A DNA stretch of 64,000 nucleotides from a virus, in IMG/VR virus record IMGVR_UViG_3300025648_000013. The stretch is one strand, 5' to 3'. Under the pieces are notes generated by a model. The model was not told the origin of the DNA and did no database searches. It saw only the letters and a list, made by a program, of their open reading frames with translations. The first letter of the stretch is position 1. The number at the start of each line of letters is the position of its first letter. The position numbers and the translations under genes are program-made. Shown one piece after another: positions 28,514-33,112 of this stretch.

Positions 28514-29188
28514 ATGATGCAGCGGTTGCTATCTATCCCTAGGATGTTAGCTTCCGCTGCATTTTCTTTTCTAGCAAAGCGGAAGCTGCCTCCATCGTTA
28601 CCTGCAAATCAAGTCTGGCCTTACGGTCAGGCTATTGTCGTGCCTGGTACCACAGTGCTTTGCAACTCGTTCTATCTCGTTCTTTATGATGAAAAGAACA
28701 TGAGAGCGATTCTTTCTGCTGAAGTAACACAGCCACCACATGATCATGTAGAAAGAGACGATGCATTCTGCTCCGATCCTCGCCTGAAACGATCACCAAC
28801 ACCCGATGACTATACAGACAGTGGATATGATCGTGGGCATTTAACACCTGCGGCTGACGCTGGAAACGAAGTCCAGATGCGTGATACGTTTCTGATCACA
28901 AACGTTGTACCTCAGACACCTAAACTGAATAGAGTTCTTTGGAAAGAACTGGAAGCGATGGTGAGAGGGATGGAGACGCAATACGTGGTGACTGGTGCAA
29001 TCTATACTGATACATCTACTTGTATTGGAGAACGTAGGATTCCCGTTCCATCGGCGTATTACAAAGTTGTCTATCTCAAAGATCGCTCTATCAAAGTTTA
29101 TATGGCGGACAACGCTGAAGGATCTGTGGTGGTAGAAAAATCTTTATCAGAGTTAGAATCTTTGGTGGGATACACATTTCCCTCTTGA
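28514..29188 (+). CDS. DNA/RNA non-specific endonuclease (NucA/EndA-like)
   Basis: SGYDRGHLTPAAD, TFLITNVVPQ, LNRVLWKELE. Confidence 0.92.
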   Translation: MMQRLLSIPRMLASAAFSFLAKRKLPPSLPANQVWPYGQAIVVPGTTVLCNSFYLVLYDEKNMRAILSAEVTQPPHDHVERDDAFCSDPRLKRSPTPDDYTDSGYDRGHLTPAADAGNEVQMRDTFLITNVVPQTPKLNRVLWKELEAMVRGMETQYVVTGAIYTDTSTCIGERRIPVPSAYYKVVYLKDRSIKVYMADNAEGSVVVEKSLSELESLVGYTFPS

Positions 29189-29248
29189 CATTATTCCCGA
29201 GTCGTGTATTATCAGTAATGTAGTCAGTGAGATATAAGGTGATTCGTT
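29185..29248 (+). promoter_or_regulatory. early promoter and RBS reading into the captured host DNA
   Basis: TTGACA..CGAGTCG..TATTAT; AAGGTGATTCGTT-ATG. Confidence 0.75.
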
Positions 29249-29575
29249 ATGACTGTTTCTGAGTTGATTGAAGAACTGATGCAGTCCGATCCTGATGCTG
29301 AGGTTGTGCGTGAGGCGATATGCGCCACCAACATCAAGCGCGATATTATCCGTCAAACCCAGAGCGCGCGCCCCACCACCGTCAACCTCTATAGAACTGC
29401 CGAGCAGCGTGCGGATGCGGTGCGGGTGGCCGCCAATCGCCAAGTGATGCAAAATGGGCAATGGACCGATGCACCCGTGCAGGCCGCGACCGTTCAGAAA
29501 ATTGAGGATATTATCCTGATCGAGTGCGCGATCTGCGCCGGTCGGGTTTCACTGGCTAGGGTTTTCATTTCATGA
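29249..29575 (+). CDS. chimeric ORF: phage N-terminus, antisense host fragment, then DUF3576-like C-terminus; stop overlaps the leuS start
   Basis: [20 protein letters not shown] | .. | [33 protein letters not shown]; ATGA overlap at 29572. Confidence 0.6.
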
Positions 29576-32085
29576 GTACGCGCTTCAACCCCTTTAAGGC
29601 GGACAAGCGCTGGCAGGAAATTTGGGAAGCGCAGGCCACGTTTGCGGCGCCCGATGCCAGCGATCCGCGCCCGAAATCATACGTCCTTGAGATGTTCCCG
29701 TATCCGAGCGGGCGCATCCATATGGGCCATGTCCGCAACTATGCGATGGGCGATGTGCTGGCGCGCTACAAACGCATGACCGGCCACGCCGTGCTCCACC
29801 CGATGGGCTGGGATGCCTTCGGCATGCCCGCTGAGAATGCGGCGATGGAAAAGAAAGTGCATCCGGGAGACTGGACGCGCCAGAACATCGCGGCGATGCG
29901 CGCGCAGCTCAAGCGGCTCGGGCTGGCGATTGACTGGTCGCGCGAACTCGCCACCTGCGAGCCCGACTATTACGGCCATGAGCAGGCGCTGTTCCTTGAT
30001 TTGTACAAAGCGGGGCTGGTCTACCGGAAGGAATCGAGCGTCAATTGGGATCCGGTGGACAACACCGTGCTCGCCAATGAGCAGGTGATTGACGGGCGCG
30101 GCTGGCGCTCGGGCGCGCTGGTGGAAAAGCGCAAACTCTCGCAATGGTTCCTGAAAATCACCGACTTTGCCGAGGAGCTGCTGGAAGGGCTCGATACGCT
30201 CGACCAATGGCCTGAAAAAGTGCGCACGATGCAGGAGAACTGGATCGGGAAGAGCCAGGGGCTGAAGTTTGAGTTTCTGGTTGAAGATTCAACCGAGACG
30301 TTTGAGGTTTTTACAACGCGGCCTGACACGATGTTCGGCGCGTCGTTTGCGGCGATCGCCGCCGAGCATCCGCTGGCCAAGCAGTGTGCGGAAACTAACC
30401 CGCGCATTGCCGATTTCATCGCCGATTGCGCGCTCTCGGGCACGGCGGCAGCCGAAATCGAGACAATGGAGAAGAAGGGCGTCGATACCGGATTGCGCGT
30501 GTATCACCCGCTCGATCGCTCACGGACTTTGCCCGTTTATGTCGCCAATTTTGTGCTGATGGATTATGGCACCGGCGCGGTGTTTGGCTGCCCGGCTCAT
30601 GATCAGCGCGATCTGGATTTTGCGCGGCGCTATCGCCTGCCTGTCATCCGCGTGGTGTCGGATGGCGATAAGGTTGATGCGGAGTTTGAGGGCGATGAAG
30701 CCTATACTGGCCCCGGCAAGCTGGTGAATTCTGATTTCCTCAATGGCATGAGCGTGGATGCCGCCAAGGCTGAAGTTATCGCCCGCGCCGAGCAAGAAGG
30801 CTGGGGCGAGGGCACGACCGTGTGGCGCTTGCGTGATTGGGGCGTGTCGCGCCAGCGCTATTGGGGCACGCCAATTCCGATGATCCATTGCGAATTCTGC
30901 GGCGTGCTGCCCGCGCCGCGCGCGCAATTGCCGATCACACTGCCTGAGGATGTGACGTTTGACGTGCCCGGCAATCCGCTTGATCGGCACCCGACATGGA
31001 AGCATGTCAATTGCCCGAACTGCAACGAGCCGGCGCGACGCGAGACCGACACGCTCGATACGTTCGTCGATTCAAGTTGGTATTTTATCCGCTTCGCCAG
31101 CCAGCCCAAGGACAAGCCGTTCGACAAAGCCGAGGCCGAGGCGTGGCTGCCGGTGGGGCAATATATTGGTGGGGTGGAGCATGCGATTTTGCACCTGCTC
31201 TATGCGCGCTTCTGGACGCGCGCGCTGGCGCGGATTGGGCGGTTGAATGTCGAAGAACCGTTCCGTGGCCTGTTCACGCAGGGTATGGTGACGCACGAGA
31301 CTTATAAGGATGCGTCCGGTAATTGGCTCTCACCCGAAGATATTAAGCACGAGGGGGGCGCTTTAACGACGCTGTCAGGGGAGTCGGTTACAATCGGCCG
31401 CGTCGAGAAGATGTCAAAATCGAAGAAGAATGTCGTCGATCCCGACACGATTCTCGATCAATACGGTGCCGATGCCGTCCGTTGGTTCATGCTTTCGGAC
31501 AGTCCGCCCGAGCGCGATCTGCCATGGTCGGAAGCGGGCATTGAGGGCACATGGCGCTTTGTGAACCGGCTCTGGCGGATTATTGAATCGCATGATGCTG
31601 CTGCGCAGGGCGAAGACAAATCCGTCGACAAAATCCTCCACCGCGCCATTGCAGGCATCGCCGCCGACATTGAGGCGCTTGCCTTCAACAAGGCGGTGGC
31701 GAAGGTGCACGGCCTCGCGAACGAGCTCGAGAAGGCCAATCCCTCGGCATCGCGCAATGCCGCTGTCCATGCGCTGGTGAGGCTCATCGCGCCGATGCTC
31801 CCGCATCTCGCGGAAGAGGGCTGGGAGGCTTTGGGCGGTTCCGGTCTGATCGCGGACCAAGCCTGGCCCAAGCATGATCCTGCGCTGCTGATCGACGATG
31901 AAGTCACCATTGTCTTTCAAACCAACGGCAAGCGCCGCGACGAGGCGAAGGTGGCCAAGGGCACAGCCAAAGATGAGCTAGAGCGCCTCGCGCTCGCCAA
32001 CGCGCATGTGCTAGCTGCGCTCGCGGGGGCCGCTCCTAAGAAAATCATTGTGGTGCCCGACCGATTGGTGAACATCGTCGCATGA
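29572..32085 (+). CDS. leuS: leucyl-tRNA synthetase, intact, host-type
   Basis: MFPYPSG, HMGH, CP1 editing domain ([19 protein letters not shown]), KMSKS; 837 aa. Confidence 0.98.
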
Positions 32086-32222
32086 TAAAACGCCTCGCGC
32101 CCCTGCTGCTCACCCTCGCACTGCCTGCCTGCGGGCTGCACCCGCTCTATTCGAATGGGTCACACGGCGCGGCCGGGCAGTTCCTCGGCGATGTCGGCGG
32201 AGGAGCCACTGCGGGCGTGTAA
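32082..32222 (+). pseudogene. lptE: truncated LPS-assembly lipoprotein LptE
   Basis: [23 protein letters not shown] (lipobox) directly after leuS; breaks after about 38 codons. Confidence 0.75.
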
Positions 32223-32242
32223 GGCTGTGGAGCCAGCATGAT

Positions 32243-32295
32243 ATGCCAACCTTGCTGCGCATTGGCGCGTTCCGCTTTTACTTTTTCAGCCACGA
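32243..32295 (+). pseudogene. 5' fragment of a DUF4160-like gene
   Basis: MPTLLRIGAFRFYFFSH, then a junction. Confidence 0.6.
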
Positions 32296-32800
32296 TACCG
32301 ACAATGAGGCTGACAATGTTGATATCTTGAGCCCGCTCGCACATCGCGAGGAGCAATCGAGCGACGTTGGGCGCGTGGATATCGACCCCGAACAAAATCG
32401 GCAATTGCTTGACAATAATCGTGATTGCCAAACCAAACGCGAAGCCCCGCAAAACGGGGCGTGCGATGAAGCCGGACAGACTGCCCAACCGCAAATAGCC
32501 GGCAGCCACAAAGATCACCCCGGTCAGCGCGACAATCAGCGTTGCGAATACTTCCGGAGCTTCAATGGTTGTTCCTAGCCCGCCGATGGCTGCGGCGAGC
32601 ATCGCCGCTGACGAGGAGGTTGGCGCGACAATCGCGAACCGGCTCGTTCCAACGAGTGCATAAACGAGCCCACCGATGATCGCGGCGAAAATCGCATGTT
32701 GCGGTGCAAACCCCGCAATCGCCGCATAGGCGACCGCTTCCGGCAACATCAACCCTGCAACCGAAACACCCGCAATGAGATCGGCGCTACGCCCGCTCAT
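32288..32800 (-). pseudogene. 5' part of a SulP-family anion transporter
   Basis: DLIAGVSVAGLMLPEAVAYA..GTSR..PTSS..FIARPVLRGF..KQLP; truncated. Confidence 0.85.
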
Positions 32801-32812
32801 GCGCCCATCCGC

Positions 32813-33112
32813 TTACATTTTTTCAATCTTCGCCTGCAGTGCTGCCAATTGTGCTTTCAGATCAGCAACCTCATCCTTAATCTCCGGCGATGTCGAAGGC
32901 GCTGGTTGCGCGGCACCGGATGCAAGTCCGAACATTTCCATGTTGCGCTTGGCCAGTTCCGCGATTGGCCCTGCGGTAAAGGCACCTTCTAACGCCGAAC
33001 GGAACTGCTGCTGGTTCCGCTGGAAGGCTTCCATTGATGCTTCGAGATATTGTGGCACCATCGCCTGCATCGAATCACCGTACATCGAAATGAGTTGGCG
33101 CAAGAAATTGGC
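32813..33112 (-). pseudogene. phaR: 3' part of the PHA synthesis repressor PhaR
   Basis: NFLRQLISMYGDSMQAMVPQYLEASM..NMEMF. Confidence 0.85.

Follow-up and report, generated by a model that had tools for sequence, protein, structure and literature searches.

Why does a T4-like phage carry a complete bacterial gene for leucyl-tRNA synthetase (LeuRS), and is the gene of any use to it? The question is raised by a 64,000-nucleotide stretch of viral DNA (IMG/VR record IMGVR_UViG_3300025648_000013, hereafter the window), which is a segment of a T4-like phage genome with 40% GC. At 29572–32085 on its plus strand lies leuS, encoding a complete bacterial-type LeuRS of 837 aa. An initial annotation, made from the DNA letters alone, had proposed that a host leuS was recently captured by the phage and placed behind an early promoter. 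Our results make it practically certain that the capture is real and recent and that the gene came from a co-occurring Sphingomonadales bacterium. The best explanation that we can offer for the whole, in which leuS serves the phage as an expressed auxiliary gene, has in our judgement an even chance of being right.

Results

Bacterial-type LeuRS is defined here by TIGR00396 / PF00133 together with PF13603 and PF08264. The product of the leuS gene in the window scores 1033 bits against TIGR00396 (leuS_bact; cut-off 548.4), its residues 9–836 corresponding to model positions 5–841 of 843. The LeuRS motifs are present (HMGH at residue 50, TTRPDT at 248 and KMSKS at 613), as is the CP1 editing domain PF13603 (225.8 bits). 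GC content is 0.55–0.60 across 29–33 kb and 0.35–0.45 elsewhere in the window; comparison with a sister phage and with the donor bacterium sets the limits of the captured block at 29304–33114 (about 60% GC). Pfam and NCBIfam searches find in this block the C-terminal end of DUF3576, the whole LeuRS, the N-terminal part of SulP and the C-terminal part of PhaR. The inventory of the proposed mosaic of host fragments was in this way borne out, except that its SulP and phaR parts turned out to be one 826-nt donor fragment. It was also correct that only leuS is whole: LeuRS is full length, all other parts are partial, and leuS makes up 66% of the block.

A mosaic of this kind may be an artefact, and an amplification or assembly chimera was the alternative named at the outset. 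The donor bacterium is present in the same samples and the joints show microhomology, as do those of chimeras made by multiple displacement amplification (MDA), both of which would suit an assembly, co-assembly or MDA chimera of the phage and a co-sequenced bacterium. However, the exact 837-aa LeuRS is found on at least 16 contigs in JGI, ENA (k141) and Logan assemblies of different freshwater samples, so that an identical six-joint structure was obtained from separate samples by three assemblers; a random chimera would not recur identically. The order endonuclease, 108-aa leader, leuS, truncated sulP, truncated phaR, phage open reading frame (ORF) is the same in 10/10 contigs examined. Sixteen freshwater runs contain at least 50% of the sampled words of the stretch and 10 contain at least 99%. 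In run X1, a single non-branching unitig (k = 31; 4,176 nt; 29222–33397) crosses every joint at a depth of 39. Because the joints share at most 7 nt, this unitig is no artefact of the de Bruijn graph. Moreover, the flanks of the carriers vary while the insert is constant. All carriers compared are 100% identical across the insert and eight are identical to the window over their whole length; carriers L090 and L091 differ only in clustered patches of single-nucleotide polymorphisms (SNPs; 24195–24414, 25661–26487, 35913–36417 and 38548–39131). The patches bear the signature of what would be homologous recombination among co-occurring phage genotypes, and the insert is present in at least three recombinant genotypes. 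A chimera is therefore an extremely improbable explanation of the locus.

Among the virus records searched, the nearest is G001 (contig L009; 61.9 kb, about 94% identical), whose collinearity with the window extends to 29306 and resumes at 33109. Between these limits it has 1,068 bp as compared to 3,802 bp in the window, which amounts to a net gain of 2.7 kb. The 1,068 bp comprise the rest of a 52-aa ORF (MTASELIEEL...) and four ORFs of 60–75 aa, i.e. 4.6 small ORFan genes were replaced; no known function was found for the small ORFs lost from the locus. Four IMG/VR phages (L187–L190, about 93–94% identical) have a third allele, again with small ORFs in place of the block. It departs from the window right after the ATG (29251), rejoins it at 33109 and has its 3' two-thirds in common with the G001 allele (stretches compared: G001 3302–4732, L187 4952–6122 and window 29252–33108). 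Comparison of the locus in sister phages, also suggested as a check, thus yields two other alleles, both without the block. To sum up the position of leuS, phage DNA lies on both sides of it on the same molecule, reproducibly, and the gene is absent from this locus in close relatives. Because the sister alleles diverge immediately after the promoter cassette, the locus is, judging from these alleles, a hypervariable early region. Hyperplastic regions of T4-type phages are known for rapid turnover and promoter-cassette shuffling (PMC2839356, PMC4122927), and the boundary of the L187-type allele at the cassette ATG looks like modular shuffling of the promoter early stem-loop (PeSL) type.

Where did the block come from? 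A LeuRS that is identical apart from A816V is encoded on bacterial contigs L102 (120 kb), L103 and L104 of the same ENA/JGI/Logan sample series. Their gene order, porin-like gene (minus strand), DUF3576, leuS, lptE, is the normal Sphingomonadales order, and window 29400–32196 corresponds to L102 9828–12625 at 99.64% identity. The next-nearest LeuRS sequences reach at most 93%, and the best species-level genome is 80% identical. Searching with the single fragments for the donor and their original spacing, as had been advised, gave L102–L104 at 99.6%, a further contig (L105) at 100%, and a spacing of 1.04 kb between the first two pieces of the block. The claim of a recent capture agrees well with a donor that is 99.6–100% identical and occurs in the same sample series. 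Because this bacterium lives in the same water, it is almost certainly a host of the phage.

Over its 2,514 nt, leuS differs from the donor gene at only two positions, by a synonymous substitution (31656) and by one leading to A816V (32018), both being C in the window and T in the donor, and 836/837 residues (99.9%) of the enzyme are identical to the donor chromosomal enzyme. This identity suggests that the phage LeuRS would leucylate tRNA-Leu. It also bears on the idea that leuS counters a defence directed at LeuRS or tRNA. According to this explanation, the phage keeps leuS so as to replace or outnumber the host LeuRS when a host system or a competitor toxin attacks LeuRS or the charging of tRNA-Leu. 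The arguments for it are analogies: an additional copy of an aminoacyl-tRNA synthetase (aaRS) can protect against aaRS inhibitors, and tRNAs carried by phages serve to evade tRNA-targeting defences (PMC10264068). However, with A816V as the only difference the phage enzyme would be as sensitive as the host copy, there is no tRNA-Leu gene in the 64-kb window, and no defence-related neighbour was seen. We consider a counter-defence role very unlikely.

The block can be read as a series of donor pieces. Piece A (29304–29370, plus strand) is 67 nt long, 100% identical to L102 8722–8788 and antisense to the gene of a 238-aa outer-membrane beta-barrel or porin-like protein. It is followed by a filler of about 40 nt (29371–29410), which reads in frame (11 residues) where the donor DUF3576 has LTVTILDTEL. 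No source of the filler was found in the donor loci or in the DUF3576 homologues searched, and a faint likeness ('VNLY') to Azospirillum DUF3576 was judged uninformative. Piece B (29411–32196, plus strand) contains the 3' end of DUF3576 (to TAG at 29557), leuS and the first 115 nt of lptE (32082–32196). The donor has both pieces in the same orientation, with A 1.04 kb upstream of B; because they are collinear there, A and B represent one captured stretch with an internal deletion or joint.

Piece D (32197–32288, plus strand) comes from a third locus and contains the 3' end of a conserved gene, reading ...SAEEPLRACKAVEPA* with TGA at 32238–32240, and the start of the next gene, reading MPTLLRIGAFRFYFFSH. 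What had been called a short unknown piece (32197–32240) is the 3' end of that conserved Sphingomonadales gene: window 32190–32225 matches the gene end in the closest GTDB genome (G002, a Sphingomonadales-like metagenome-assembled genome) at 89% over 36 nt. The label DUF4160 for 32243–32295 was not confirmed, as this 21-aa stub is too short for Pfam and gave no match even at E = 10; a resemblance to DUF4160 would be one to the N-terminus of the family. Piece C (32289–33114, minus strand) is a contiguous 826-nt fragment, consisting of the sulP 5' part (512 nt, 32289–32800), a 12-nt spacer and the phaR 3' part (302 nt, 32813–33114). The same phaR end, 12-nt spacer and sulP start are found at 100% identity on bacterial contig L105 (55 kb, 57.6% GC). 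A related bacterial contig in run X18, from a different and later study, matches 32289–33114 alone, the homology ending exactly at both limits. In G002 phaR and sulP are adjacent, on a contig other than the one with leuS, and in none of 80 Sphingomonadales genomes was SulP or PhaR found within 6 kb of leuS.

Three unlinked host loci in one 3.8-kb block are easier to obtain in several steps, and for neither the filler nor piece D was an exact source found. The mosaic could accordingly have been put together earlier, in a different phage or mobile element of this host, and then been transferred as a unit, in which case the internal joints would tell nothing about this phage. Yet no other context of the block was found: all contigs that encode the exact LeuRS represent this phage or the normal bacterial locus, the chimeric leader protein occurs in this phage only, and the first 55 nt of the leader belong to an ORF of this phage lineage itself. 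We therefore give little credence to pre-assembly elsewhere.

At the left joint, phage sequence ...GCTGAG(G/A)TTG meets donor sequence ...GAAATTGTGCG. An overlap at 29300–29308 had been proposed here; a short overlap does exist, but only TTG (29304–29306) is exact, lying within an imperfect 9-mer (donor GAAATTGTG, sister phage GAGATTGAG). At the right joint, donor sequence ...AAATTGGCTG meets phage ATGGC(C/T)GCAATA, with TGGCTG (33109–33114) shared. Possible overlaps at the internal joints are GATGTCG (32190–32196) between pieces B and D and GCCACGA (32289–32295) between D and C, the latter where an overlap at 32288–32295 had been suggested. Microhomology at the joints is 3–7 nt only, and the joints are, by their appearance, typical of illegitimate, microhomology-mediated joining. 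The GC-rich block was also said to interrupt two phage ORFs. The block is there and the left ORF is cut, but the right ORF (33090–33413, plus strand; 101 aa in sister phages, called as 107 aa on insert contigs) is not interrupted. The right joint turns its ATG into TTG (33108–33110) and the GGAAGG ribosome-binding site (RBS) of the sister phage is gone; a new in-frame ATG at 33090, within donor DNA, is the start picked by gene callers.

Upstream of the block lies an early-type promoter cassette (29185–29251, plus strand), consisting of TTGACA (29185), a 16-nt spacer, TATTAT (to 29212), a leader, the RBS AGGTGATTCGTT and ATG at 29249. The promoter has 11/12 matches to the sigma-70 consensus. 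The cassette, TTGACA...AGGTGATTCGTTATG, is present in three exact copies in the window (24418–24480, 29185–29251 and 42187–42249) where 0 are expected, and many further copies occur in G001. A GANTC site is present in the spacer of each copy, and directly ahead of the ATG there is another in inverted orientation; these pairs are suggestive of an alphaproteobacterial host with CcrM and of control of the CcrM/GcrA type. Folding of the three copies gave no shared stable hairpin (z = 0.73, −1.79 and 0.70). The cassette works like a PeSL, but we do not class it as one.

As the initial annotation had it, this promoter and RBS (29185–29248) start a chimeric ORF. It encodes 108 aa (29249–29575, plus strand), is the one open frame out of three, and ends in a TGA that overlaps the ATG of leuS (ATGA), also as described. 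In order, it is composed of 18–19 codons of the phage 52-aa ORF, antisense porin-like DNA, the filler, the C-terminal end of DUF3576 and a frameshifted tail. The identical leader protein was called on 15 contigs (P0121), and a search for intermediates returned the final form only. leuS is thereby placed 320 nt behind the strong phage promoter, with a continuous translation frame up to its start; the host upstream region is gone and 161 nt of DUF3576 coding sequence are left. The suspected 1-nt deletion near 29520, by which the DUF3576 stop is bypassed, is seen against the donor, whose G 9952 is absent after window 29523. Altogether, 29520–29525 differ from the donor by C>T (29520), A>G (29522), the lost G and C>T (29525). 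All DUF3576 homologues end in ...ILTKARDLRxSGFTG*, and the old frame of the window still reads a family-like tail (10 residues) up to the TAG at 29557. Had the frame not shifted, the leader would end 12 nt short of the leuS start codon, like DUF3576 in the donor. The transcription unit starting at 29185 probably ends at a terminator-like hairpin (34211–34232, plus strand; 9-bp stem with 6 G–C pairs), which is a consensus match only. No convincing terminator was found between the promoter and 34211. Plus-strand terminator-like matches inside leuS (29980 and 30705) are weak and were rejected, 13 being found as compared to 7.4 ± 2.4 in shuffles.

Regarding the genomic setting, phage-type genes in the window include those for an SbcC-like gp46 and a DnaB-like helicase, four tRNAs, and a family-B DNA polymerase about 45% identical to cyanomyovirus and rhizobiophage gp43. 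The polymerase is split, its two ORFs (18624–20108 and 20291–21376; 494 and 361 aa) being separated by a short gap. Genes for tRNA Asn-GTT, Thr-TGT, Glu-TTC and Pro-TGG (25233–27857) are situated just upstream of the insert locus. A DNA/RNA non-specific endonuclease gene (PF01223, 28514–29188) directly precedes the capture site, which is probably a coincidence. According to the gene table of identical contigs, 34741–35556 encodes a 271-aa protein with a PF03496 ADP-ribosyltransferase domain (exotoxin type), probably an Alt-like host-modifying enzyme. Contigs with this exact LeuRS reach 141 kb in length, so that the phage genome measures at least about 141 kb. When the region was compared by megablast with 50,697 phage records, matches to tRNA-Pro were the only ones returned, and tblastn of one structural protein of the window against phage records returned none. 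IMG/VR scans gave 0 matches for the left joint and 0 close LeuRS relatives, the window's own records possibly lying outside these scans. As a side observation on the donor, L102 carries at 20457–21321, about 8 kb downstream of leuS, a pair of genes with the SocA_Panacea domain, a possible toxin–antitoxin or defence module of the presumed host.

Discussion

How could a bacterial leuS have come to stand behind a phage promoter? T4-like phages degrade host DNA during infection, which may be the source of the host fragments. In the mechanism that we prefer, fragments from at least three chromosomal loci (the porin-like/DUF3576-leuS-lptE locus, the unnamed locus of piece D and phaR-sulP) were linked with one another and with phage DNA by illegitimate recombination across 3–7 nt of microhomology. 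This probably took place in a cell that was replicating the DNA of this phage; if this is true, the donor lineage is the host of the phage. The block replaced 1,068 bp of small ORFans just downstream of the early promoter and RBS cassette. Later, the 1.04-kb internal deletion or joint removed the host upstream region, and a small change shifted the frame, with the outcome that only a translated 108-aa chimeric leader, ending in the ATGA overlap, precedes leuS. The gene would then be transcribed early from the promoter at 29185 and translated by coupling to the leader. It would supply extra LeuRS of the host type at a time when the DNA and transcription of the host are shut off, and leuS could be seen as an auxiliary translation gene whose domestication has only just begun.

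Is leuS retained by selection? Three things argue for this: the spread of the allele, the position of the joints, all of which are outside leuS, and the snug fit of piece B around the gene, with 161 nt upstream and 111 nt downstream. By a post-hoc estimate based on the gene table of the L102 locus, such a fit is expected for about 2% of the positions of a random 2.8-kb fragment of the donor locus.

Alternatively, leuS may be the passenger of a real capture: a chance product of illegitimate recombination that took the place of dispensable ORFans in a hyperplastic region, neutral or mildly deleterious, which we see only because it is recent and which will be lost or eroded, with the open leader and the frameshift due to chance. 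This we rate a little below our preferred explanation, and several of our observations weigh against the latter. With donor identity at 99.6–100% and no amelioration from 60% GC towards the 40% of the phage, the capture is of so recent a date that leuS would be intact even without selection; because there are only 2 substitutions in 2,514 nt, its intactness carries no selection signal. About 1 kb of useless host fragments (the sulP and phaR parts and pieces D and A) has been kept, i.e. trimming is incomplete. An in-frame leader has about a 1-in-3 chance of arising, and coupling could do without the frameshift, DUF3576 and leuS being 12 nt apart in the donor. The enzyme is essentially the host's own, so that any benefit would be one of dosage or timing only. 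The event may also be costly to the phage, as it destroyed 4–5 genes and deprived a sixth of its RBS and start. The IMG/VR scan found no related phage with LeuRS, and few phage records contain one, apart from those of huge phages and doubtful assemblies. In run X1 the flanks have a depth of 54–75, as compared to 39 for the insert unitig, and a 1,326-nt branch of the L187 type leaves at 29251 with a depth of 14. Crude as contig depths are, this hints that the insert allele is polymorphic and not fixed in that run; every contig with the identical upstream endonuclease gene carries the insert, no insert-free one having been found. Among the listed runs that contain the stretch there is no RNA run, which says nothing on expression. 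Rapid turnover is, besides, known for such regions (PMC2839356, PMC4122927).

It is harder to reconcile a passenger with the substantial depth of the insert in many samples and its presence in at least three phage genotypes. The internal joints all miss a gene of 2.5 kb that takes up 66% of the block, around which piece B fits so closely. In addition, to judge from T4 biology, a useless gain of 2.7 kb should be selected against in a headful-packaging phage. The initial proposal, microhomology deletions under selection to express leuS, is thus upheld for the microhomology of the joints and for at least one internal deletion (1.04 kb), but not for the selection.

A stronger version of our preferred explanation holds that leuS was trimmed stepwise under selection, first by the 1.04-kb deletion and then by the frameshift that made the ATGA overlap, and that the allele is rising in a lake population which still holds the donor, rival alleles and possibly intermediates. 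We regard this as doubtful. If it is true, it would be the birth of a phage translation gene in real time, with the fitness value of the gene and the tempo of its domestication directly measurable.

Host genes in lytic phages are usually met long after their capture, when donor, joints and intermediates are gone. Here, the donor from the same water (99.6–100%), joints of 3–7 nt, scraps of three host loci and alternative alleles are still visible together. The locus offers a concrete case from nature of a large housekeeping gene being taken up by a T4-like phage: by illegitimate joining into a hypervariable early region, behind a ready promoter. It also gives a sequence-based assignment of a host (Sphingomonadales) to an uncultured lineage of freshwater myoviruses. 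Moreover, it is a test case for the usefulness of an aaRS in a mid-sized phage, through allele frequencies over time and transcripts that can be told apart by the joints and the two SNPs.

Compared with known systems, the gene agrees with bacterial LeuRS of TIGR00396 in its full-length match, its HIGH, KMSKS and CP1 motifs and the remnants of DUF3576-leuS-lptE synteny as in Sphingomonadales. It differs from chromosomal bacterial leuS in that the copy sits in a phage, without its native upstream region. T4-like phages carry host-derived auxiliary metabolic genes (AMGs) or morons, for example cyanophage psbA. The leuS described here resembles these AMGs as a host gene in a lytic myovirus under phage expression signals, presumed to sustain a limiting host function; unlike the classical ones, which are old, ameliorated and form distinct phage clades, it is undiverged and its benefit is presumed only.

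The locus is similar to T4-type hyperplastic regions and their PeSL elements (PMC2839356, PMC4122927) in that a repeated strong sigma-70-like cassette borders small non-essential ORFans and near relatives swap genes right after it, here with the break at 29251. As to differences, no conserved stem-loop terminator was found in the cassette, and in contrast to PeSL shuffling the leuS block came in through microhomology joints, one situated 55 nt into an ORF and the other at the start codon of the next. [quoted passage not shown] With these (Al-Shayeb et al. 2020, PMC7162821) and with the aaRS of giant viruses leuS shares a host derivation, a proposed support of translation and a phylogenetic affinity that points to the host clade. 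It differs from the huge-phage genes in being a single LeuRS, carried by a T4-like phage whose genome measures about 141 kb or more, and in being 99.9% identical to that of a co-occurring bacterium and with host scraps alongside. A host-derived translation gene in a phage is therefore already known; what is unusual here is the freshness of the capture and the clear record of its acquisition.

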